A stretch of DNA of 38,761 nucleotides. Source: Oscillospiraceae bacterium (GTDB lineage: Bacteria; Bacillota; Clostridia; Oscillospirales; Acutalibacteraceae). The position numbers and the translations under genes are program-made. Where the stretch lies: contig JAQVYP010000001.1 of the NCBI GenBank assembly GCA_029004655.1, forward strand, positions 1-38,761, in the 5' to 3' direction. The notes under the pieces were generated by a model. That model saw only the letters and a list, made by a program, of their open reading frames with translations. It was not told where the DNA came from and made no database searches. Shown one piece after another: positions 135 to 38,444 of the stretch. Numbering within the stretch: position 1 is the first letter of the stretch; the number at the start of each line of letters is the position of its first letter.

Positions 135-1172
135 ATGTCAGATGTTGTTTATAATGTGACTATTTTTGGCTTGAAATTTAACATTAAACCGGTTGCATTT
201 ACATTGCCTTTTGGCGGTGGCTGGGATATTTATTGGTATGGTATTATTATCGCAACCGGTTTTTTGCTTGCAATTATTTATGCTTGGAAAAATGCCGAAA
301 GATTTAATTTAGATATTGATCGACTGATCGACGTCGTTTTGGTTTCAACCCCTGTTGCAATTTTGTGCGCTCGTTCTTATTATTTGATTTTTGATGGTGA
401 AAAACTATCTGGAATCTCCGAATTTTTCGGAATGGATGGTTCGGGATTTTCAGGACTTGCCATTTATGGCGGAGTTATCGGAGCAGCGGTTTCCGCAATT
501 ATAATGTGCAAGGTGCGCAAGGTTAATGTTTTAGATGCGCTTGATATATCCGCTCTCGGATTCTTGATTGGCCAAGGAATAGGCCGTTGGGGGAATTTCT
601 TCAATCAGGAAGCTTTTGGTTCTGCAACGGGCAGCGATTTTTGGGGCATGACAAGTGAAAATGTTGCGTCTGAACTTGGAACAGGAAAGCTTGCACATCC
701 ATGCTTTTTGTATGAATCAATTTGGTGCATTGCCGGATTCTTCCTACTCCATAAACTCAGCAAGAACCGTAAATTCTCGGGACAAATTGTGTTGGGATAT
801 GGCGTATGGTATGGCTTTGGACGCACTATAATTGAGGGATTGCGTACTGATAGTCTTTACATAGGACCTTTCCGTGTTTCTCAAATGCTTTCACTTTTGT
901 TGTGTATAACTAGTGTTGTTGTTTATACTTTAATAATCAAGCGCAGAAAAGAATCGGAAAAAGATACGGAATACGTTCCGATTTTCGGTGATCTTGATGA
1001 TATAATAGCTGTTGGTGAAGAAACCGATCAAGAGGAGACCGGCAGTGAGCCCGAATATACTTCAACCTTCGGAAGTCTTGATGATACAGTAGCTTACGGT
1101 AATAATTGTGAAGATATAGAAGAAAAAAATGAAGTCGATCAGAACACATCTGATGACACGAAAATTGATTAA
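135..1172 (+). CDS. lgt: Prolipoprotein diacylglyceryl transferase with an acidic C-terminal extension
   Basis: 345-aa polytopic ORF with the Lgt signature GRWGNFFNQEAFG. RBS AAGGAAG upstream. The last ~75 aa are an acidic non-membrane tail. Confidence 0.9.
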   Translation: MSDVVYNVTIFGLKFNIKPVAFTLPFGGGWDIYWYGIIIATGFLLAIIYAWKNAERFNLDIDRLIDVVLVSTPVAILCARSYYLIFDGEKLSGISEFFGMDGSGFSGLAIYGGVIGAAVSAIIMCKVRKVNVLDALDISALGFLIGQGIGRWGNFFNQEAFGSATGSDFWGMTSENVASELGTGKLAHPCFLYESIWCIAGFFLLHKLSKNRKFSGQIVLGYGVWYGFGRTIIEGLRTDSLYIGPFRVSQMLSLLLCITSVVVYTLIIKRRKESEKDTEYVPIFGDLDDIIAVGEETDQEETGSEPEYTSTFGSLDDTVAYGNNCEDIEEKNEVDQNTSDDTKID

Positions 1173-1225
1173 CTTATAAATTTCAGGATGAAACGCTTCG
1201 GAGCGGCAATAAGGAGATATTAAAT

Positions 1226-2077
1226 ATGGCACAGATTATTGATGGAAAAGCAATATCACAGGCAGTTAAGGATAGAGTTGGCAAAGAGGTTGCCGAGCTC
1301 AATGAAAAAAGAATAACTCCGGGCTTAGCAGTTATAATTGTCGGAGCCGATCCAGCTTCTTTGGTTTATGTCGGATCCAAAAAGCGGGCTTGCAGTGCTC
1401 TTGGTATGTATTCAGAAGAACATTCATTGCCTGAAAACGTATCTCAGGAAGAGCTTCTTGCCCTGGTGGAATGCCTTAATAACCGCAGTGATATTAACGG
1501 AATTTTGTGTCAGCTTCCACTGCCAAAACATCTTGATGAAAAGTCAGTTATAAATGCTATTTCCCCTGAAAAGGATGTGGACGCATTTCATCCGGCAAAT
1601 GTTGGTCGTATTATGATTGGAGATTACGACTTTCTACCTTGTACCCCTGCAGGTATAATGGAAATGTTGGTCGCTTCAAATATTGATGTTTCGGGTAAAC
1701 ATTGTGTTGTAATCGGTCGTTCAAATATTGTTGGCAAACCAATGGCAATGCTGATGCTGCACAAAAATGCAACCGTCACTATTTGCCATTCAAAAACAAA
1801 AAATTTGTCGGAAATATGCCGTCAAGCTGATATCTTGGTTGCGGCGGTTGGTCGTGCAAGGTTTGTAACAGCTGATATGGTGAAGCCGGGCGCAGTTGTT
1901 ATTGATGTTGGCATGAACCGTCCCGATGGCATACTTTGCGGTGATGTCGATTTTGATGAGGTTTCCAAAGTTTGTTCTTCAATAACGCCTGTTCCGGGTG
2001 GAGTTGGACCTATGACAATTGCAATGCTGATGCAAAACACCCTTACAGCAGCAAAACGTCAAAATGGGATCGTATAA
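1226..2077 (+). CDS. folD: Bifunctional methylenetetrahydrofolate dehydrogenase / methenyl-THF cyclohydrolase
   Basis: 283 aa with N-terminus MAQIIDGKAIS and FolD hallmarks VIIVGADPAS, QLPLPKHLD, VIGRSNIVGKPMAMLM and PVPGGVGPMT. RBS AAGGAGA. Confidence 0.92.
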   Translation: MAQIIDGKAISQAVKDRVGKEVAELNEKRITPGLAVIIVGADPASLVYVGSKKRACSALGMYSEEHSLPENVSQEELLALVECLNNRSDINGILCQLPLPKHLDEKSVINAISPEKDVDAFHPANVGRIMIGDYDFLPCTPAGIMEMLVASNIDVSGKHCVVIGRSNIVGKPMAMLMLHKNATVTICHSKTKNLSEICRQADILVAAVGRARFVTADMVKPGAVVIDVGMNRPDGILCGDVDFDEVSKVCSSITPVPGGVGPMTIAMLMQNTLTAAKRQNGIV

Positions 2078-2097
2078 AACCTAATAAATAAAAGGAT

Positions 2098-2835
2098 GTG
2101 ATAAAAGTGAAAAAGACAATTCTTTCAATTTTTGTCATGGCTTTATTACTATCGCTTTTTACTTTCCCAGTCCAAGCTGAAACCTATTCATTTAAACAAG
2201 AAAACCTTAGAATTGGTTTCTCGGATGAATATACAGTTTTAACCCCAAGCAATTTAAATAAAAACAGTGATATAGTTGAGGCTATTGGCCATTCAGTTAC
2301 ATCGCTTAAAACCAACATGCAAAATAACGGCATTATTTTAATGGCAGTGACAGACAAAAACCAGCACCAAATACAACTGAAATCTGCTACAACCACCTTT
2401 ACATCAGAAATTGTATCACTGTCTAGCTTATCCGGCACTCAACTCGATACTGTAGCAACCCAGCTTGTCGGAAAAGATTATGAAGTGGCATATAAAAACA
2501 ATATAGTGTTTCTTAAAATCAAAACATTAACAAGCGAGTATACTTCAGTTCAATATGTCACTGTGGAAAACGGCAAATTGTACACACTGGTGTATTACGG
2601 CGCTGATCTGTCAAGATTAGACACGGTTTTAAATTCACTTATTATAACAGAAATTAGCGGTTTTTCGTTGCTTGATGGCACAACTGTTTTGCAAATTGTG
2701 CTTATATCGATTGTCATTGTTGCTGTTATGGTTGCAGTTGTTTTATTAATTATTTCTTTTATTAAAGATTATAAAGATCGTAACGGTGAAAACGACGTTA
2801 GAGATTATATAAAAATAAAACGCAGAAAATTCTAG
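2098..2835 (+). CDS. Hypothetical exported protein with a C-terminal membrane anchor
   Basis: 245-aa ORF (GTG start; an alternative GTG is at 2107). Has an N-terminal signal-like segment (ILSIFVMALLLSLFTFPVQA), a C-terminal TM (VLQIVLISIVIVAVMVAVVLLIISFI) and a basic tail. No family recognised. Confidence 0.55.
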   Translation: MIKVKKTILSIFVMALLLSLFTFPVQAETYSFKQENLRIGFSDEYTVLTPSNLNKNSDIVEAIGHSVTSLKTNMQNNGIILMAVTDKNQHQIQLKSATTTFTSEIVSLSSLSGTQLDTVATQLVGKDYEVAYKNNIVFLKIKTLTSEYTSVQYVTVENGKLYTLVYYGADLSRLDTVLNSLIITEISGFSLLDGTTVLQIVLISIVIVAVMVAVVLLIISFIKDYKDRNGENDVRDYIKIKRRKF

Positions 2836-2916
2836 CATTTACAAACTTAATATAGTTATTTTAATATTTTAATATTTGATTAAATTATGGAAAACAATAA
2901 AGTTAAAGTATTATTA

Positions 2917-2945
2917 TTGACAAGTATATTTATTCGTGATAAAAT
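2917..2945 (+). promoter_or_regulatory. Sigma-A type promoter of the polyamine operon
   Basis: TTGACA (2917-2922), a 17-nt spacer, then TAAAAT (2940-2945). It implies a ~430-nt untranslated leader before speD. Confidence 0.5.
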
Positions 2946-3381
2946 TCTTAAATGTAGCGTAATATAAATTTTTTACAATATATTTTACTTTGCAGAATTT
3001 TGACCGCACTAATGCTTTTTTTGAAAGTATTAGGAAAAAGAGGCCGGACGGACAGCCGGGTCAAATGCCGATTGGCAACTTTGTTGCCTTATTGATTAAG
3101 CTAAAGTGCAATAATGCGTTGATGCTTACTTTTTATAAGTTGGTTACTTAAAACCGTGTGTGGAGAACACATCACACTTGTGAAACGATCAATAAGAGTA
3201 GTAAAAGTATTTTGCTTGGGCAAAAATGTGCTATATAGACTCTGATTCTTGTCAAATATTGCGTTGATTTTTCAACTCAGTAAATACGGATGAATTATCG
3301 AAGAACACAAGTGTAACCGGTTTTAAACCGTCTCTTGAGTTCTTTTTATTTGCAAATTTCTAATTAAAAGGAAGCGGTATT
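2946..3381 (+). promoter_or_regulatory. Long structured 5' leader of the polyamine operon (candidate attenuator or riboswitch, class unknown)
   Basis: No ORF of 60 aa or more on either strand. Contains several local hairpins (e.g. GGCAAC-TTT-GTTGCC at 3074-3088) and ends in a terminator-like hairpin just before the speD RBS. Confidence 0.4.
3301..3351 (+). terminator. Leader terminator / attenuator hairpin upstream of speD
   Basis: AAGAACACAAGTGTAACCGG / CCGTCTCTTGAGTTCTT forms an imperfect stem of about 14 bp, followed by TTTTTATTT. It ends ~30 nt before the speD ATG. Confidence 0.55.
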
Positions 3382-4185
3382 ATGATCAGTAATATACAAG
3401 AAAAATTAAAACTTTATGGATTTAATAATCTTACAAAGTCGCTAAGCTTTAATATTTTTGATGTTTGCTATGCCAAAACTGAGCGTGAGCAAAAAGATTA
3501 CATCGAATATATTGACGAACAATACAATTCCGAGCGTCTTACTGCAATCATCACAAATGTTGCAAAAATGATTGGCGCCACTGTTTTAAGCATTTCTCGT
3601 CAGGATTATGAGCCTCAAGGCTCCAGCGTGGCATTTTTGATTGCTGAGGAATCTGTTGCTAAGCGTTTCACCGCTAATGATGAAGAGATATTGGCTCATC
3701 TTGATAAAAGCCATATCACCGTTCATACCTATCCGGAGTTTCATCCTGGCACATCAATTTCAACTTTCAGAGTGGATATAGATGTTGCCACATGCGGTGA
3801 AATCACCCCGCTTAGCACACTGGACTATCTGATTGGAAGCTTTGATTCCGATATTATCACAATGGATTATCGGGTCAGAGGATTCACAAGGGACATGACT
3901 GGCCATAAGCTGTTTATTGACCATGAAATTACATCAATTCAGGATTACATTGACAAGAAAACACTTCAACGATATGATGCTATTGACATCAATGTTTACC
4001 AGTCCAATATTTTTCACACCAAATTGCTGATAAAGGACATTGAACTTCAACACTATCTTTTTAATACTGATGTATACGAGCTTCCGCCAAAGGTGCGCCT
4101 TGATATTTTGAACAACCTTCACCGTGAGATGATTGAAATATACAGTGGCACAAATGTCTATTTGGGTGCAGATAAAAATGAATAA
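3382..4185 (+). CDS. speD: S-adenosylmethionine decarboxylase proenzyme (E. coli-type class 1B)
   Basis: 267 aa. [24 protein letters not shown] and [11 protein letters not shown] closely resemble E. coli SpeD. The self-processing and pyruvoyl region is [14 protein letters not shown]. Confidence 0.9.
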
Positions 4186-5635
4186 TGAAGATCAAAATAA
4201 AGCCCCAATAGCTGAGGCTTTGACAAATTTTAAAAAAATGAGGGTTGTCCCATTTGACGTGCCGGGGCATAAGCGCGGTAGAGGAACGCCCGAACTTTCA
4301 AGTTTTTTAGGGAAAACCTGCCTCGAAACCGATGTTAATTCCATGAAACCGCTTGATAATCTTTGCCATCCGATTTCCGTAATTCGTGAAGCAGAAGAAC
4401 TGGCGGCAGATGCTTTTGGAGCAGTGCAAGCATTCTTTATGGTGGGTGGAACAACATCAGCCGTGCAATCCATGATTTTATCGGTATGCAAAGATGGAGA
4501 TAAAATAATTTTACCCCGCAATGTTCACCGCAGTGCAATCAACGCAATAATTCTTTGCGGTGCTATACCTGTTTATATTAATCCGCAAACCGATTGTAAT
4601 CTGGGTATTTCACTTGGCATGAAAACAGATGATGTGATTCGTGCTATGTTGGACAATCCTGATGCAAAAGCAGTGCTTGTTAACAATCCTACTTATTATG
4701 GCATTGTGTCTGATTTAAAAGCAATTACAGAGGCCGCACATAAGTTACGGATAATGGTGTTGGCAGACGAGGCTCACGGTACACACTTCTATTTTGGCGA
4801 TGACATGCCTATCTCTGCTATGGCAGCAGGCGCAGACTTTGCCGCAGTCAGCATGCATAAATCGGGCGGCTCGCTGACACAAAGTTCCTTTTTGCTTTGT
4901 GGTAAATCAGTTAATGTGGGATATGTCAGACAAATTATTAATTTAACCCAAACCACCAGCGGATCATATTTGTTGCTTTCAAGCCTTGATATTGCCAGAA
5001 AAACTTTGGCTCTTAAAGGCAGGCAAATATTTAAGCAGGTTCAAGATTTGACCACCTATGCAAGAGAAGAAATTAACCGTATCGGCGACTTTTATGCATA
5101 TTCCAAGGAAATAGTCAATGGCGATACAATATTTGATTTCGATACAACGAAGCTATCAGTCTACACTTATGATGTGGGGCTTGCCGGAATTGAAATATAT
5201 GATATTTTGCGGGATGAATTTGATATTCAAGTGGAGTTCGGAGATTTGTCCAATATTTTAGCGTATGTTTCAGTTGGCGATCGAGAACGCGATATTGAAC
5301 GACTTGTTTCTGCTCTTGCTGAAATAAGGCGTAAATATAAACGTGAAAAAGCCCATTTGCATAAATATGAATATATTAGCCCAACAGTAGCTTTGACTCC
5401 TAAAGAGGCGTTTTACAGTGATAAGAAATCAGTACCCCTTGAAACAAGTTGCGGCGAAATATGCACGGAATTTGTAATGTGCTATCCTCCGGGAATTCCG
5501 ATTCTTGCTCCCGGCGAACGCATAACCAGGGGAATTATTGATTATATTAAATATGCGAGGGAAAAAGGTTGCTCATTAACGGGACCTGAAGATATGGATA
5601 TTAATTTCATTAATATTTGCAGAAAGGGTGGCTGA
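4178..5635 (+). CDS. speA: Arginine (Orn/Lys/Arg family) decarboxylase, Bacillus SpeA type, PLP-dependent
   Basis: Has the [12 protein letters not shown] motif and the PLP-lysine motif [14 protein letters not shown] chose the ATG at 4178 (MNNEDQNK), which overlaps the speD stop (ATGAATAA), rather than the upstream in-frame ATG at 4133 inside speD. Confidence 0.85.
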
Positions 5636-5637
5636 AA

Positions 5638-6489
5638 TTGGAACTGTGGTTTTCAGAAAAGCATACCGAAAATGTTAAATTATCAATAAAGGTTAGCGAA
5701 CATCTTTTTCACGAACAAAGTGGTTTTCAGCAGATAGATGTTTTTGATTCTATTGAGTTTGGGCGTTTTTTAACTCTCGACGGTTACATGATGTTGACCG
5801 AAAAAGATGAATTTATTTATCATGAAATGATGGTTCATGTACCAATGGCCGTACATCCATCGATAAAACGTGTTCTGATTATCGGTGCTGGTGACGGCGG
5901 TGTGCTTCGTGAATTAATAAAATATGATTACATTGAAAAAATTGACTTGGTGGAAATTGACGCGGAAGTTATAAAGGTTTGCAGAGAATACTTGCCCTTC
6001 ACTGCATGCGGATTTGACGATGAGCGTGTAAACATCACTTGTCAAGATGGACTTAAGTTCATTCGACATCCACATGATGAATATGATTTAATTATTGTCG
6101 ATTCTACTGACCCATTTGGCCCCGGAGAAGGCTTGTTTACAAGGGAATTTTACGGAAACTGTTACAAGGCTTTGCACGAAGACGGAATTTTAATCAATCA
6201 ACATGAAAGCCCGTTTTATAAGGAAGATGCGGCGGCGGTAACATATATTCACAAAAGAATTGTTGAATCATTTGAAGTCGCGCGAGTCTATCAAGCACAT
6301 ATTCCGACCTATCCTTCAGGGCATTGGCTGTTTGGTTTTGCTTCTAAAAAATATCATCCGGTAAAAGATATGAGAGCTAGCGAGTGGAAATCTTTGAATA
6401 TTAAGACCAGATACTATAATACCAATCTTCATCTGGGATCTTTTTATCTGCCAAATTACGTTGAGGAGTTACTTGTTGATGTGGAATAA
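5638..6489 (+). CDS. speE: Spermidine synthase / aminopropyltransferase
   Basis: Typical SpeE N-terminus (M)ELWFSEKHTENV, nucleotide-binding GAGDGGVLRE and DLIIVDSTDPFGP. Likely TTG start at 5638, 2 nt after the speA stop, with RBS AAGGGTGG. The track ORF starts at 5617. Confidence 0.88.
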   Translation: MELWFSEKHTENVKLSIKVSEHLFHEQSGFQQIDVFDSIEFGRFLTLDGYMMLTEKDEFIYHEMMVHVPMAVHPSIKRVLIIGAGDGGVLRELIKYDYIEKIDLVEIDAEVIKVCREYLPFTACGFDDERVNITCQDGLKFIRHPHDEYDLIIVDSTDPFGPGEGLFTREFYGNCYKALHEDGILINQHESPFYKEDAAAVTYIHKRIVESFEVARVYQAHIPTYPSGHWLFGFASKKYHPVKDMRASEWKSLNIKTRYYNTNLHLGSFYLPNYVEELLVDVE

Positions 6490-8548: not shown

Positions 8549-9691
8549 ATGCAAAGTGTTCCGATGTTTGATTTTAAGTCTTTACCCTCACCTTGCTATG
8601 TTGTGGACAAGCGACTGCTAGTGCAAAATCTCGAGTTGTTGCATCAGGTAAAACAGAAAACAGGGGCAAAAATTTTGCTTGCACAAAAAGCGTTTGCAAT
8701 GCATTCACTTTATCCAATGATTCACGAATATCTGGACGGAACCACCGCCAGCGGATTATTTGAGGCTAAGCTCGGGGCCGAAAAAATGGGCGGAGAAACC
8801 CACGTTTTTTCACCAGCATATAATAAGAACGAGTTTTCGGAGATCTGCCAAATTTGCGACCACATAATTTTTAATTCCATGAGTCAATGGGAGAAATTCA
8901 GTGCAAGCGCCTTAGCCGCCAAAAAAAGTTGTGGATTGCGAATTAATCCTGAATGTTCAACTCAAGAACACGGAATTTATGATCCTTGTTCGCCTTTTTC
9001 TAGGTTAGGCATCACTATCGACAATTTTCCTGAAAATCTGCCACAAGGGATTGAAGGCTTGCACTTGCACACGTTGTGTGAGCAAAATGCAGATGCACTG
9101 CAAAAAACAATTGAAGCATCCGAGAAAAAATTCGGCAAATATTTTTCACAGATAAAATGGTTGAATCTTGGTGGTGGTCATCACATAACCAGAGCTGATT
9201 ATGATGTTGAACTGCTGTGCAAAACTATTGAGACAATTAAAAGCCGTTATGGGCTGGAAATATATCTTGAGCCGGGCGAGGCAGTTGTTTTGAATACCGG
9301 ATTTTTAGTTGCAACTGTGGAAGATATTATAGATAATGGAATGGAAATTGCGATTTTGGACACCTCCGCCTCATGCCATATGCCCGATGTGCTTGAAATG
9401 CCATATCGCCCTGAGATTATTGGCGCCGCGGGTTCGGGTGAGGAAGAATATACTTATCGTTTAGGCGCAAACACTTGCCTTGCGGGCGACATTATCGGCG
9501 ATTATTCTTTTGGCAAACCACTAAACGTGGGCGAGCGCCTGATTTTTTGCGACATGGCACATTACTCAATGGTTAAAAGTAATATGTTCAACGGCATAAA
9601 TTTGCCATCAATTGCAGTGATTAATATGGATGGTGAGCCGCAAATAATCCGCACTTTTGGCTACGAGGATTATAAAGAACGATTGTCATAA
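8549..9691 (+). CDS. nspC: Carboxy(nor)spermidine decarboxylase
   Basis: 380 aa from the ATG at 8549, 1 nt after the preceding stop. Alanine racemase-fold decarboxylase with LPSPCYVVDKRLL, LNLGGGHH and EPGEAVV, in the typical pairing with the dehydrogenase. Confidence 0.82.
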   Translation: MQSVPMFDFKSLPSPCYVVDKRLLVQNLELLHQVKQKTGAKILLAQKAFAMHSLYPMIHEYLDGTTASGLFEAKLGAEKMGGETHVFSPAYNKNEFSEICQICDHIIFNSMSQWEKFSASALAAKKSCGLRINPECSTQEHGIYDPCSPFSRLGITIDNFPENLPQGIEGLHLHTLCEQNADALQKTIEASEKKFGKYFSQIKWLNLGGGHHITRADYDVELLCKTIETIKSRYGLEIYLEPGEAVVLNTGFLVATVEDIIDNGMEIAILDTSASCHMPDVLEMPYRPEIIGAAGSGEEEYTYRLGANTCLAGDIIGDYSFGKPLNVGERLIFCDMAHYSMVKSNMFNGINLPSIAVINMDGEPQIIRTFGYEDYKERLS

Positions 9692-9700
9692 AATAGTATT

Positions 9701-9857
9701 ATACTAATTCCAATTAAAAAGTGACCAAGATTTGCGAGGATTTTGTTTGTGAGACAAGGCGGAGGACGAAGGCGGGCTATCGCCCGCCGAGAACGACAAC
9801 GCAGTCTCGCAAACAAAAGACCACGAAGATTGGTTGATTTTTATTTGGAATTAGTAT
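9701..9857 (+). repeat. Copy 1 of a dispersed 157-bp long-hairpin element (MITE/REP-like or structured RNA)
   Basis: Termini are ATACTAATTCCAA ... TTGGAATTAGTAT. The whole unit is an imperfect palindrome with GC-rich apex GGCGGGC-TATC-GCCCGCC. It is 97-99% identical to the copies at 14465-14621 (reverse) and 18915-19071. Confidence 0.9.
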
Positions 9858-9883
9858 TATATAATTAATTAATAGAACCGACC

Positions 9884-9922
9884 AAAAACAGGACCACCGA
9901 ATTAACCGGTAGTCCTGTTTTT
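9884..9922. terminator. Bidirectional intrinsic terminator between nspC and the PHP gene
   Basis: AAAAACAGGACCACCG - loop - CGGTAGTCCTGTTTTT, with an A-run and a T-run on either side. Confidence 0.6.
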
Positions 9923-14340: not shown

Positions 14341-14385
14341 AAAAAATCCACAGAGAGCATTTTATATGCAATCTGTGGATTTTTT
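14341..14385 (+). terminator. Intrinsic terminator after htpG
   Basis: AAAAAATCCACAGA - 17-nt loop - TCTGTGGATTTTTT. Confidence 0.6.
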
Positions 14386-14464
14386 GTCTCCCTTTTCACG
14401 GGTGATGGTGTATTACAGCCTAACGGAGGATTTGAAAGCCAATATTCTCTGTAATTATAGATTA

Positions 14465-14621
14465 ATACTAATTCCAAATAAAAATCGACCAATCTTCGCG
14501 GTCTTTTGTTTGCGAGACTGCGTTGTCGTTCTCGGCGGGCGATAGCCCGCCTTCGTCCTCCGCCTTGTCTCACAAACAAAATCCTCGCAAATCTTGGTCA
14601 CTTTTTAATTGGAATTAGTAT
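14465..14621 (-). repeat. Copy 2 of the 157-bp long-hairpin element (inverted orientation)
   Basis: Its reverse complement differs from copy 1 at only 2 positions (A>G and T>C, both in the right arm). It lies between the htpG terminator and the rpsR terminator. Confidence 0.9.
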
Positions 14622-14660
14622 AAAACTATTTTTCTGTTTTTAGTTTTTAATTTTTTGCAA

Positions 14661-14707
14661 AAAACCATCGGCGTATCAATAAAGCCCTGTTGATACGCCG
14701 ATGGTTT
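14661..14707 (-). terminator. Intrinsic terminator of the rpsF-ssb-rpsR operon
   Basis: AAAACCATCGGCGTATCAA - loop - TTGATACGCCGATGGTTT (~18-bp stem), with a T-run on the minus strand. Confidence 0.7.
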
Positions 14708-17257: not shown

Positions 17258-18034
17258 ATGTTGTTGACTATTGATATTGGAAACACCAACATTACTATTG
17301 GTGGATATATTGAGAATTCGCTGGTATTAACGGCCCGCTTGGCAACAGATACGCGCCGCACTGCTGATCAGTATGCTGTCGAAATTCGTGACATTTTGCA
17401 TATTTATGGGTATTCTTACAAACAGATAGACGATGTTATTATCTGCTCGGTTGTGCCAATTGTAGCGCGTGGAATCGAAAACGCTTTCAAAAATCTTTGT
17501 AATATTGAGCCTATTATATTAGGGCCCGGCGTAAAAACAGGGTTGAATATAAAAATCGATAATCCGGCGCAGTTAGGCGGAGATCTCGCTGCAGGTGCTG
17601 TCGGAGCATTGGCAATATATAAAATGCCATGTATTATTATTGATTTGGGAACAGCTTCCACTATAAGTGTTTTGGGGGGAAACGGAGACTTTTTGGGTGG
17701 CGCTATTGCCGCTGGCATTAACCTTACCAGCGAAGCCTTGGCTCAAAAAACCACGCTTCTTCCGATGGTAAGCATCGAAGCGCCCGAAAATGTTATTGGA
17801 ACAAACACGGTGGACTCCATGAAATCCGGATTGGTAATCGGAGCTGCTGCAATGCTGGACGGCATGATATCCAGAATTGAAAAGCAACTCGGTGAAACAG
17901 CCTCAGTAGTTGCGACGGGTGGCCTTGCGAAAGAAGTATTGCCGTTTTGTGAGCGTAAAATTATATTTAATGATACACTCTTGCTTGATGGATTAAAAAT
18001 CATCTATAATAAGAATAAGAAAAAGAAAAATTAA
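17258..18034 (+). CDS. coaX: Type III pantothenate kinase
   Basis: 258 aa. MLLTIDIGNTNITIG (ASKHA phosphate-1 motif), IIIDLGTAST and ATGGLA. Confidence 0.9.
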   Translation: MLLTIDIGNTNITIGGYIENSLVLTARLATDTRRTADQYAVEIRDILHIYGYSYKQIDDVIICSVVPIVARGIENAFKNLCNIEPIILGPGVKTGLNIKIDNPAQLGGDLAAGAVGALAIYKMPCIIIDLGTASTISVLGGNGDFLGGAIAAGINLTSEALAQKTTLLPMVSIEAPENVIGTNTVDSMKSGLVIGAAAMLDGMISRIEKQLGETASVVATGGLAKEVLPFCERKIIFNDTLLLDGLKIIYNKNKKKKN

Positions 18035-18093
18035 TACTATTTACAATTAAAAAGCGTCCAAAGATTTGCGTGGATTTTAGTTGGAATTAGTAT
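18034..18093 (+). repeat. Copy 3: 60-bp internally deleted, degenerate derivative of the long-hairpin element
   Basis: ATACTATTTACAATTAAAAAGCGTCCAAAGATTTGCGTGGATTTT is the left arm with several substitutions. It is joined directly to AG-TTGGAATTAGTAT (the right terminus). The ~100-bp GC-rich core is missing. It abuts the coaX stop codon. Confidence 0.75.
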
Positions 18094-18251
18094 AAAATAA
18101 TATAATGCTAACAAGGTTACAGATTAAACCATATTGCGGCGAAACAGCGTGTTTTAGCGTTTCAGCCAATGTTTTGGCTGTAGCTCGATAGCTTTTATAT
18201 ACATAATTTTGCGCTGTATTCAGTTAATGAAACAGCAGCAAGGAGAATATT

Positions 18252-18881
18252 ATGAAAAAAAACAACTCGCAAAAAACTCAGAGATTGGTATTGTTTTCAA
18301 TTTTTGCCGCTATTCTTGTAGTAATGAGTGCTACACCACTTGGATACTTGAGAATTGGTGCTTTGGCCATTTCTTTCCTTACCATTCCGGTTACTATCGG
18401 CGCAGTACTATTGGGACCCATAAGTGGTGCAACATTGGGATTATTATTTGGACTTACAAGCTTTTTCCAATGCTTTGGTTTCTTGTTTTGGCCTATAGAC
18501 CCATTGGGATCTGCACTTTTCGCAATCAATCCCATATATATGACGATAGTATGTATCGTTCCAAGGGTACTTATGGGATTACTAGTAGGATTAATTTTTA
18601 AGGCAATCCGTAAAGTTGATAAGACGGATACTATGAGCTATGCTGTTGCAAGTTTGTCCGGATCGGTTTTAAACACAATTCTATTTATATCAACTCTTTT
18701 ATTGTTTTTTTACAACACAAATGAAATCCAGGCGTATGTTACTCAACTAAACGCAAAAAATGTATTCGTATTTGCGGCGTTATTTGTTGGAATTAATGCA
18801 GTTTTTGAAGCACTCGTAGCATTCATTGTATCATTCCCAGTAACAAAAGCAGTTGCAAGATATTCAAAAAGATTTGCATAG
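18252..18881 (+). CDS. ECF transporter S component (substrate unknown; PanT-like by context)
   Basis: 209 aa with ~6 TMs and a motif region LTIPVTIGAVLLGPISGATLGLLFGLTSF typical of ECF S components. No adjacent ecfA/ecfT. Its position next to coaX suggests pantothenate, but this is only context. Confidence 0.65.
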   Translation: MKKNNSQKTQRLVLFSIFAAILVVMSATPLGYLRIGALAISFLTIPVTIGAVLLGPISGATLGLLFGLTSFFQCFGFLFWPIDPLGSALFAINPIYMTIVCIVPRVLMGLLVGLIFKAIRKVDKTDTMSYAVASLSGSVLNTILFISTLLLFFYNTNEIQAYVTQLNAKNVFVFAALFVGINAVFEALVAFIVSFPVTKAVARYSKRFA

Positions 18882-18914
18882 TTTTATCTTTACCAATCAC
18901 AACTATAATTGCTA

Positions 18915-19071
18915 ATACTAATTCCAATTAAAAAGTGACCAAGATTTGCGAGGATTTTGTTTGTGAGACAAGGCGGAGGACGAAGGCGGGCTATTGCCCG
19001 CCGAGAACGACAACGCAATCTCGCAAACAAAAGACCGCGAAGATTGGTTGGTTTTTATTTGGAATTAGTAT
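18915..19071 (+). repeat. Copy 4 of the 157-bp long-hairpin element
   Basis: Same orientation as copy 1, with 4 differences out of 157 (one in the apical loop, three in the right arm). Located 33 nt after the S-component stop. Confidence 0.9.
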
Positions 19072-19086
19072 AATACAACTTGGCAT

Positions 19087-19134
19087 AAAAAATCCCTCAA
19101 CCTCAGTTTTTTAAGCTGAGATTGGGGGATTTTT
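19087..19134. terminator. Bidirectional intrinsic terminator (ECF-S gene / VanY-like gene)
   Basis: AAAAAATCCCTCAACCTCAG - loop - CTGAGATTGGGGGATTTT, with flanking A and T runs. Confidence 0.6.
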
Positions 19135-33495: not shown

Positions 33496-34428
33496 TTACT
33501 TTTTGTTTTTACACTTGCAAGTTGACTTTTTACCAGAAGCGGAAAACAATTTTGCGGAATTTTTTAAACCTGTATTGGTTAAACTTGTATTGATTAAGCT
33601 TGAATTGGTTACATTTAAATTGGTAGAGCCACAATTTGTGCAAATATCTTCACTTGTAGCTTCAATACATTCTACAGATGGAGCACCGGTACTGGCAACT
33701 GAACCGAATTCAACGTTGACAGCAACACAGACATCCTGTGCCATTGTAAAGAAACAACTTCCATTAACCATTCCGGGACAAGCAGTTTCACCTGATGTTA
33801 CAACGGGAGTTCCACAACAAGTCGTGGTTGTTGTGCCCGCAGTCGCAAATGGCGTTACCGTCACGGGCACACATACCGTTGATGATTCATAAGCAGTTTT
33901 TTCGCATGTTTGTATGCTCTTACATGCAGGTCCGCAAATGCTTAATCCTGATTTAGTTTCGTTCCCACCAAACAAACATACATTATTAGGACCGATAGGA
34001 TAAGGCGTTGTCAGCTCAAAGCAAAAATTCATCACACCGCCAACCTTATTCAAGCCAAAGTCGAGTTTCAGTCCCGGACAGCCTGTCGGAGGATCCGGTT
34101 GAGCAAGTGTGCGTAATTCCACATTACCACCCGGTCCAAAAATTACTTCTTGTGGGTCGCCATCTATCGTTACAGATACATTAACAATTTCATTTTGAGC
34201 AATTTCATCGCATATTCCTAATACCAAATGACTCAAATCTTTAAATTGTGGCAGATCTTGCCCCACGCCGGTGACAATGTAACAAAAGCGTTGATTTTCA
34301 CCCGGTGAAGGATTCAAATTTGAATTTGCTACATCTAATTCTATTAAAAACGGAAGAATTACATCTCCAATAACATTGCTGTAATTGATTTGTAAATTGC
34401 AAGACAATTCTTCACTTTGCTGTAACAT
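33496..34428 (-). CDS. Cys/Thr-rich protein, long paralog (unrecognised N-domain, shared Cys-rich module, basic tail)
   Basis: 310 aa with no signal peptide. Its C-terminal half (STVCVPVTVTPFATAGTTTTTCCGTPVVTSG...ATSEDICTNCG) is paralogous to the whole upstream 108-aa protein. The tail is SLINTSLTNTGLKN...KCKCKNKK. RBS AAAGGAGAA. Confidence 0.7.
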   Translation of the reverse strand: MLQQSEELSCNLQINYSNVIGDVILPFLIELDVANSNLNPSPGENQRFCYIVTGVGQDLPQFKDLSHLVLGICDEIAQNEIVNVSVTIDGDPQEVIFGPGGNVELRTLAQPDPPTGCPGLKLDFGLNKVGGVMNFCFELTTPYPIGPNNVCLFGGNETKSGLSICGPACKSIQTCEKTAYESSTVCVPVTVTPFATAGTTTTTCCGTPVVTSGETACPGMVNGSCFFTMAQDVCVAVNVEFGSVASTGAPSVECIEATSEDICTNCGSTNLNVTNSSLINTSLTNTGLKNSAKLFSASGKKSTCKCKNKK

Positions 34429-34451: not shown

Positions 34452-34778
34452 TTACAAATTGCAGTTTGTACAAATATCTTCACTTGTTGCATCACCACAT
34501 TCTACAGCCGGAGCGCCGACAGTTGCTACAGCGCCAAAATTAACAGGAACTGCAACACAAAGAGTTTGAGCAATTGTAAAGTAACAGCTTCCGTTAATTG
34601 TCCCAGCGCAGATAGTACTACCGGATGTTATAACCGGGTCACCGCAACAGGTCGTGGTTGTTGCACCAGCTGTTGCAAATGGCGTGACAACTACAGGAAC
34701 ACATACCGTTGCAGATTGATATCCTGTTGCAGGGCAAGTCTGGACAGGATCTTGGAATGCCCTTAAATTAACTGACAT
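34452..34778 (-). CDS. Cys/Thr-rich protein, short paralog (stand-alone Cys-rich module)
   Basis: 108 aa with a perfect RBS AAAGGAGGAA. Sequence: ATVCVPVVVTPFATAGATTTTCCGDPVITSGSTICAGTINGSCYFTIAQTLCVAVPVNFGAVATVGAPAVECGDATSEDICTNCNL. 10 Cys, no signal peptide. Confidence 0.7.
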   Translation of the reverse strand: MSVNLRAFQDPVQTCPATGYQSATVCVPVVVTPFATAGATTTTCCGDPVITSGSTICAGTINGSCYFTIAQTLCVAVPVNFGAVATVGAPAVECGDATSEDICTNCNL

Positions 34779-37914: not shown

Positions 37915-38081
37915 TAACATATAGCTGTAATCGTAACCCGGCATTGAAAAAGTGCTGATTCATTTTACTCAAACAAGAAACCTGCTATAATTTTATCAGG
38001 TTTATAGAAGCGCGGGATCACTTTAAAGACCACCTTGTCAACGGTTTAGCGCTATGCTCCTAATGACTCAGATTAACACTT

Positions 38082-38239
38082 ATACTAATCTCAAATAAAA
38101 ACGTAGATATCTTTACGATCTAGTTTTCGTCCCGCCGCGTTGTCGTCGGCGGCGGGCGCTAGCCCGCTGTCCTCCTCCGCCTTGCGGGACAAAAACTATC
38201 CTCGCAAATCTAATCTCCATTTTTAATTGAGATTAGTAT
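38082..38239 (-). repeat. Copy 5: divergent subfamily member of the long-hairpin element
   Basis: Termini are ATACTAATCTCAA ... TTGAGATTAGTAT, with the change compensated in both arms. It is 158 bp with the same architecture and shares the conserved blocks TCCTCGCAAATCT, CGTTGTCGT, TCCTCCGCCTT and a GC apex. Confidence 0.85.
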
Positions 38240-38320
38240 TACGCCCATAAAGAGATACACCCGGCTAATATTAATATCAAGAATGCTATCTGGCAACCGC
38301 AATAGCGAAAAGTAAAGAGT

Positions 38321-38367: not shown

Positions 38368-38444
<77 letters not shown>

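Follow-up and report, generated by a model that had tools for sequence, protein, structure and literature searches.

A TNA-duplicating family of long-hairpin MITEs in an Oscillospiraceae-like lineage and its folded core module conserved across two phyla

The hairpin repeat that occurs five times in the window (the whole stretch of DNA analysed, 38,761 nucleotides of Oscillospiraceae contig JAQVYP010000001.1, assembly GCA_029004655.1) is a MITE, a non-autonomous DNA transposon, as follows from its target-site duplications (TSDs), an empty site in a sister genome, its dispersed multicopy distribution, the existence of nested and chimeric copies and the lack of a linked transposase. Taken alone, this new TNA-duplicating MITE family of an uncultured Oscillospiraceae-like lineage is ordinary. 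Its GC-rich core is not peculiar to the source genome, and belongs to a module that is conserved across two phyla. The explanation judged best, to which a probability of about 0.7 was given, is that the element is moved in trans by a transposase of the IS5/PHIS type and carries a structured passenger module selected in its single-stranded form. MITEs are usually defined by their ends, with the interiors treated as junk; here this is reversed, the ends varying and the folded interior being kept, nearly unchanged from rumen Clostridia to soil Streptomyces and with the fold of one strand preserved.

Copies in the window and their insertion at TNA sites

All five copies were found where the original prediction had placed them, and their coordinates and features were confirmed. 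The 13-bp terminal inverted repeats described for them are present, except that the outermost A and T were shown to be part of a 3-bp TSD. The element proper of copy 1 (plus strand, first given as 157 bp at 9701-9857) is 155 bp long (TACT...AGTA, 9702-9856), with termini TACTAATTCCAA/TTGGAATTAGTA and a TTA duplication at 9699-9701 and 9857-9859 (whole insertion 9699-9859); the entire element is a hairpin and has no coding capacity. It is preceded by the nspC stop codon (9689-9691) and followed by a bidirectional terminator (9884-9922). Copy 2 (14463-14623, minus strand; element 14466-14620, given earlier as 14465-14621) has a TTA on both sides when read in the orientation of the element, and it is located between the terminators of htpG (~14341-14385) and, on the minus strand, of rpsR (~14660-14707). 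Copy 3 (18913-19073, plus strand; element 18916-19070, given earlier as 18915-19071) is flanked on both sides by TAA, with the ECF-S stop codon at 18879-18881 and a bidirectional terminator at 19088-19134. Copy 4 (18032-18095, plus strand) is a 58-bp internal-deletion derivative (element 18035-18092, given earlier as 60 bp at 18034-18093) that consists of the left arm and the right terminus without the core; its left TAA (18032-18034) is the coaX stop codon and its right TSD lies at 18093-18095. Copy 5 (38080-38241, minus strand; element 38083-38238, given earlier as 38082-38239) represents a divergent subfamily, has TAA on both sides and is located downstream of a tRNA gene on the minus strand (38371-38444). 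Its arms differ from those of copies 1-3 by compensatory changes (e.g. GTGAGAC/GTCTCGC to GTCCCGC/GCGGGAC), while its core is unchanged. The copies are intergenic, as had been proposed, and lie 9 nt past the nspC stop, in contact with the coaX stop and 33 nt past the ECF-S stop; nspC was identified by homology, and coaX and the ECF-S gene by the Pfam table of a syntenic contig, L066. The four terminators beside copies 1 to 3 are of the canonical A-tract/hairpin/U-tract type, two of them being bidirectional.

The internal organisation also agreed with what had been predicted from the letters. Mutual differences between the three full copies amount to 2, 4 and 4 of 157 positions (2-4 claimed), and the central 58 nt, described as two-thirds G+C, are 64% G+C, the window as a whole having 38% and the arms 31%. 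Each unit forms one long imperfect hairpin. The predicted RNA fold of copy 1 has a free energy of -76.4 kcal/mol, versus -32.2 +/- 3.6 for shuffled sequences (z = -12.2), and none of 200 shuffles equalled it. The structure includes the 15-bp helix, the purine-rich internal loops and the apical GGCGGGC-TATC-GCCCGCC clamp that had been described. In copy 1 the conserved core spans 9756-9802 (plus strand) and reads AAGGCGGAGGA-CGAA-GGCGGGC-TATC-GCCCGCC-GAGAACGACAACGC, the apical stem being formed by 9771-9777 with 9782-9788 around a loop at 9778-9781. The core is enclosed by an inner stem (9741-9818), in which 9741-9755 pairs with 9804-9818, and immediately beneath this stem lies a tandem G.A/A.G internal loop (GGAU/AGAC). 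Inner stem and core together make up the ~90-nt module that is common to different arm families.

Evidence for transposition was obtained from the duplications at the ends of the element. The 3-bp TSDs are perfect in all five window copies (TTA, TTA, TAA, TAA and TAA, in the order of copies 1 to 5), and identical flanking trimers were seen in 37 of 47 full copies (TAA 16, TTA 15, TCA 4, TGA 2). As a control on the same 47 copies, shifted registers gave 1-11 matching trimers, and flanking 2-, 4- and 5-mers matched in 0-1. The target duplication had originally been regarded as an ambiguous TA/AT; these trimers and an empty site establish that it is 3-bp TNA. The empty site was found in L066, a contig of a sister genome that is syntenic over ~20 kb (nspC 89% identical) and carries none of the window's copies. 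It reads ...AAAAAC-TAA-AATAAGATAATGC, where the window has ...AAAAAT-TAA-[element]-TAA-AATAATATAATGC, the single TAA being the coaX stop, so that the comparison of filled and empty sites that had been proposed could be made. It applies to the spacer between coaX and the ECF gene only, as three other spacers were too diverged for alignment. Given the empty site and the matching middle base, the duplication is not the TA dinucleotide that characterises MITEs of the IS630/Tc1-mariner group. In a 99%-identical strain the site downstream of nspC is filled, and the contig of that strain stops within the element. In a more distant relative (L067, nspC 84% identical), the site after nspC holds a degraded left end at ~6105-6135, GTATTATACGAATTTTAATTAAAAGCG, which suggests either an old insertion there or an independent hit on the same site.

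Many more copies exist in other genomes, in support of the predicted dispersed, MITE-like long-hairpin family and against a local segmental duplication, which was rejected. A scan for the core pattern in one genome per species located the family in MAGs of Oscillospiraceae and Ruminococcus, and a subsequent nhmmer search yielded 81 hits; a related MAG contains at least 54 copies across 35 contigs. Nested copies and copies with chimeric arms were found. At one locus (L048, 5657-6449) three copies are clustered within 800 bp; elsewhere one copy has landed within another, at TCA or TAA, or the two arms of a copy come from different subfamilies (L001 2136-2395, L006 3-262, L013 6497-6654, L002 and L047). 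Nesting, clustering and chimerism of this kind indicate that the family has been active recently and that its subfamilies recombine. Genes can also acquire a stop codon or a new C-terminus from the element: in a related MAG (L057) the frame of prfB (release factor 2; 53-1063) enters a copy at 1040-1197, which provides its last codons and stop.

The hairpin evidently breaks short-read assembly and scaffolding. Six LXOW01 contigs of one metagenome assembly (L077, L105, L123, L124, L155 and L159) contain copies that are complete but for the core, in place of which stands NN, and many metagenome contigs begin or stop within the element, as L065 does at its end. Recognition of the family should improve both assembly and annotation in poorly sampled gut and rumen lineages.

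Distribution, fold and strand specificity of the core

The same GC-rich core was found on hairpins with unrelated arms and termini (TAGTCGCC..., CTAGTGTG..., TAGACCTCC... and GC-rich arms in a genome of 73% G+C). Similarity declines outward from the core, the inner stems being alignable between arm families and the outer arms not. As a safeguard against circularity, the pattern used to scan metagenomes fixed the apical stem and the 3' motif only, and the unconstrained 5' motif AAGGCGGAGGA (up to 2 mismatches) was recovered directly upstream in 74 of 124 hits, on contigs of 37-75% G+C. The other metagenome hits are probably fortuitous and lie in GC-rich coding sequence, and the high-GC hits of the first genome scan were, except for L051, likewise chance matches, in coding sequence reading K-A-E-E-E. 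The invariance of the GCGGGC/GCCCG stem and of ACGACAACG was partly imposed by the search patterns.

Hosts of the core comprise Clostridia, Negativicutes (Succiniclasticum) and two orders of Actinomycetota, and hence two phyla, Bacillota and Actinomycetota. One high-GC carrier was assigned to the Micrococcales by its glycyl-tRNA synthetase, and a BLAST search with the Micrococcales copy returned 41 Streptomyces plasmid records with matches at 82 places. The Firmicute variants (the window type and common ones) gave no BLAST match in phage and plasmid records, and the core was absent from viral contigs scanned by pattern. It also had no BLAST match in E. coli genomes, which, at the sensitivity of BLAST, rules out that it is a piece of rRNA, tmRNA, RNase P or SRP RNA. 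A search of Rfam 15 with the window copy and nine other, diverse members gave no hit at the gathering score, nor at E <= 10 or E <= 1, and no prior description of the family was met in the literature searched by name, sequence string and genus, in line with the original view that the element is neither a named repeat nor an Rfam family. The larger set of mobile hairpins that share the ~90-nt module is apparently undescribed.

To assess conservation of the fold, 42 non-redundant centres representing different arm families were aligned; their consensus comprises 25 pairs. Paired cells made up 89.9%, compared with 68.6% after column shuffling (none of 500 shuffles reached the observed value) and 35-50% when the partners were slid, and the covariation score was 0.54 versus 0.16. 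Compensatory changes were present in 14 of the 15 inner-stem pairs, and two pairs within the otherwise invariant core covary (C-G 25, G-C 9, U-A 5; G-C 30, A-U 6). The apical helix of the Streptomyces copies differs in sequence and still pairs (CGACGC/GCGUCG, CCAACGC/GCGUUGG, CCCCGAUAC/GUAUCGGGG), with the flanking motifs fixed. The purine-rich loops, GGAGGA facing GACGAC, are nearly invariant, and ~25 loop nucleotides stay fixed while the arms diverge. As the apical helix changes its sequence and the motifs on either side of it do not, the conserved part is the purine-rich strand pair. Placed opposite each other, 5'-GGAGGA-3' and 5'-GACGAC-3' would form a stack of G-C, G.A and A.G, repeated twice, in which the bases never vary.

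The two strands of the element are not equivalent. The strand that carries AAGGCGGAGGA folds better than its complement in all 47 copies (-76.3 vs -57.3 kcal/mol), and when the core was swapped for a tetraloop the same strand was still the better one in every one of 22 arm clusters (Wilcoxon p = 5e-7). Even for the outer arms alone, which share no sequence between families, the core strand was better in 25 of 30 families, with G.U exceeding A.C (73 vs 36, p = 5e-4) and G.A exceeding C.U (66 vs 24). The bias was the same in all six Streptomyces copies. A double-stranded palindrome gives no reason for such asymmetry, which argues for selection on a single-stranded form. Rare variants within one genome are ~3-fold sparser in the core than in the arms (p = 0.0014, for 36 copies related by descent), despite an AT-biased background that would be expected to erode a GC-rich core faster. 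These observations point to selection on the module as folded by one particular strand, and so to a nucleic acid that acts in single-stranded form.

Mobility of the element and candidate transposases

Transposition does not depend on the core. A 104-bp family and a 50-bp element, present in several copies, have the same TACT termini and TAA TSDs, no core, unrelated interiors and no long hairpin, and copy 4 of the window likewise lacks the core. Since these core-less elements transposed with the same termini, the termini suffice for mobility and the core is a passenger rather than a mobility signal. In the same MAG, core-bearing copies are far more numerous than core-less ones. Short copies in the LXOW01 contigs that seemed core-less were discounted, as they are full copies with an NN assembly gap. 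TA rather than TNA flanks other arm families that carry this core, and the module thus travels with more than one type of terminus; more than one transposase lineage may be involved, possibly including IS630.

Inspection of its gene content bore out that the window contains no transposase. A search of the window, of ~190 loci and of the plasmid records disclosed no autonomous IS whose termini match, and all-against-all clustering of ORFs from ~185 loci chosen solely for the core revealed no recurrent protein specific to the family, the clusters recovered being generic paralogues only (ABC ATPases, response regulators). All ten ORFs that had inverted repeats on both sides turned out to be host genes, and lone termini or terminus pairs at IS-like spacing enclosed nothing other than host genes between two copies. 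An IS630/Tc1-like element had been named as an example of a possible partner; the TNA duplication fits an IS5/PIF-Harbinger-like one instead, 3-bp TWA and C|TNA|G duplications being a signature of the PHIS (IS5/PIF-Harbinger) superfamily (PMC4482050). A trans-acting transposase of this type is therefore most likely, a family assignment that is drawn from the type of TSD, as no autonomous element with matching termini was found.

Two Streptomyces loci contain transposase genes or their remnants next to a hairpin element or mini-element. On a plasmid of Streptomyces cavourensis (L199, NZ_CP101398.1, 132000-136500) a hairpin element abuts an 869-bp IS of the IS5 family (DDE_Tnp_4 + HTH_Tnp_4), the sole IS5-family IS seen, whose terminal inverted repeat, AAGGTTGTTGCAGAA, is unlike the hairpin termini. 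At 866-3050 of this locus an IS630-family IS, the IS5-family IS and the hairpin element abut one another, with a single TA at every junction, and the trio looks like successive insertions, each into the TA left by its predecessor. Both ISs were rejected as partners, their termini being unrelated to those of the hairpin; as neither has the hairpin's termini, the locus is a case of co-residence and shared target preference and not of partnership. On a plasmid of Streptomyces sp. NBC_00454 (L190), a 57-bp mini-element (3501-3557) consists of two termini and nothing else. The adjoining unannotated, frameshifted DDE_5 (IS701-like) pseudogene (3580-4928) was likewise rejected, having unrelated ends.

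Under the favoured explanation, a DDE transposase supplied in trans would recognise the ~20-bp termini (TACTAATTCCAATTAAAAAG and its inverse) and insert the element at TNA with a 3-nt stagger, whereby TNA would be duplicated. Insertion at TNA would account for frequent hits in stop codons (TAA, TGA) and AT-rich 3' spacers. The interior of the element would contain a structured passenger of ~90 nt, dispensable for mobility and composed of the inner stem, the GGAGGA/GACGAC helix, the two covarying pairs and the variable apical stem-loop. The acting form would most likely be RNA, made when the element is transcribed in the sense of the core (e.g. in the 3' UTRs of nspC and the ECF-S gene), a folded DNA strand being the alternative. 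The purine-rich helix, with its non-canonical pairs, resembles a site at which a conserved factor would bind.

Explanations of the core and relation to known repeats

It is unlikely, although the location of several copies invites the idea, that the element owes its spread to a benefit in cis, acting on host transcripts as a portable terminator or as a 3'-end stabiliser or processing site in the manner of REP, ERIC, Correia or SPRITE. Terminator, stabiliser and processing roles of MITE transcripts are documented (PMC10969869). Copies 1 and 3 follow a stop codon and precede the bidirectional terminator of the same gene, a position in which they would be read in the sense of the core, copy 1 together with nspC. 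In AT-rich families the stem is bordered by A- and U-tracts that belong to the arms, and Streptomyces copies often occupy the spacer between convergent genes. The window genes nevertheless retain canonical terminators beside the copies, so that they do not depend on the element for termination, and copy 2 lies between two convergent terminators; identity with an ordinary terminator was accordingly considered unlikely. A terminator scan of the element flagged weak sub-hairpins only, and these on the opposite strand, while the part that is conserved includes invariant purine-rich loops, where a terminator or stabiliser would need a stable stem. Orientation relative to the flanking genes is unbiased (19 same, 16 opposite) although the fold is strand-specific, and no internal promoter is evident in the element; a function on host read-through transcripts alone is therefore insufficient. 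The unbiased orientation would equally be expected of an ordinary MITE with a functionless core, in which an extended inverted repeat is kept by descent and by the stability of a GC-rich stem. Transposition alone would account for the TSDs, termini, empty site and nesting, core-less relatives have transposed too, and searches seeded with the core inflate its apparent conservation. This possibility was nonetheless considered quite unlikely, as the ~25 loop nucleotides are fixed between phyla in which the arms are unrecognisable, the 5' motif was recovered although it was not required, and the apical and inner stems covary around unchanged loops. Nor would it lead one to expect the G.U and G.A asymmetry in independent arm families, or a GC-rich core with fewer rare variants than the AT-rich arms of an AT-rich genome.

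Movement as a single-stranded DNA hairpin, catalysed by an HUH or tyrosine-type enzyme as for IS200/IS605, REPIN-RAYT or integron attC, would explain why one strand is consistently better folded, why apical features are conserved and why orientation is independent of transcription. Such systems make no TSD, as opposed to the 3-bp TNA of 37 of 47 copies and the empty site; no Y1/RAYT or integrase gene is present in the window, or linked to or recurring among the loci; the copies are dispersed and form no cassette arrays; and core-less, non-hairpin elements with the same termini have moved as well. This mode of movement was accordingly regarded as very improbable, and trans-mobilisation of a MITE with a selected passenger is the reading retained. 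A further proposal, put forward tentatively and at well below even odds, is that the ~90-nt core is an unrecognised structured RNA (or folded-DNA) motif with a conserved partner or activity, that GGAGGA/GACGAC is its putative protein-binding or catalytic centre, and that several MITE lineages in Bacillota and Actinomycetota have repeatedly re-fitted it with new termini.

Among known systems, Tourist-type MITEs such as rice mPing and the IS5-derived MITEs of bacteria are likewise small, non-coding and multicopy, with terminal inverted repeats, AT-rich targets and mobilisation in trans. The 3-bp TWA/TNA duplications of PIF/Harbinger elements, in which TAA and TTA dominate as they do in the window family, are a further likeness (PMC4482050). 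Ordinary MITEs conserve their termini, whereas the interior of the window family is a single long hairpin with a strand-specific core conserved across phyla, and no parent IS with matching termini was found for it among the sequences searched. Correia elements of Neisseria, ERIC/IRU of Enterobacteria and RUP of the pneumococcus are also intergenic palindromes of 100-170 bp that form hairpins when transcribed, insert close to the ends of genes and into one another, and have no linked transposase (see also PMC10969869). They duplicate TA, in contrast to the TNA seen at the empty site, and share no sequence similarity with the window family. ERIC is conserved across genera; no Correia, ERIC or RUP element is known to have a core common to families of different termini or found across phyla. 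REP/REPIN sequences are similarly abundant extragenic hairpins without a linked transposase, for which strand-specific hairpin recognition is plausible, but they have no TSD, a conserved 5' tetranucleotide and a single-copy RAYT. A REP/REPIN-RAYT identity was rejected, as the window family has a TSD and no RAYT was seen in the window or recurring in the loci; integron attC was rejected as well, the copies being dispersed at unrelated loci with ends TACT.../...AGTA.

By analogy, the logic is that of SINEs, a structured module spread by borrowing the mobility machinery of different autonomous elements. Unlike SINEs, the present elements bear the marks of DNA transposition, inverted-repeat ends and a palindromic TSD, and show no sign of reverse transcription. 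If the proposal holds, this would be a new case in which a functional nucleic-acid module uses the transposition machinery of others to spread, a bacterial mobile non-coding module comparable in its logic to SINEs or ribozyme-bearing repeats. Should a partner or activity exist, the module would be a widespread unannotated player in Gram-positive genomes, residing in the 3' UTRs of ordinary genes.

Two other features of the window were observed. A match to the Rfam SpF59/ldcC RNA (3001-3071, plus strand; 44 bits, above the gathering score) lies just upstream of a polyamine operon, which by synteny with L066 encodes AdoMet decarboxylase, Orn/Lys/Arg decarboxylase, spermidine synthase, an agmatinase/arginase, a saccharopine dehydrogenase-like protein and nspC; the match is likely to be the cis-regulatory leader of this operon. 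Two ORFs on the minus strand (33496-34428 and 34452-34778) have no Pfam match and have in common a 267-nt repeat, D1, of 72% identity (33632-33898 and 34462-34728); tandem paralogy is one possible origin, a split repeat-containing surface protein another.
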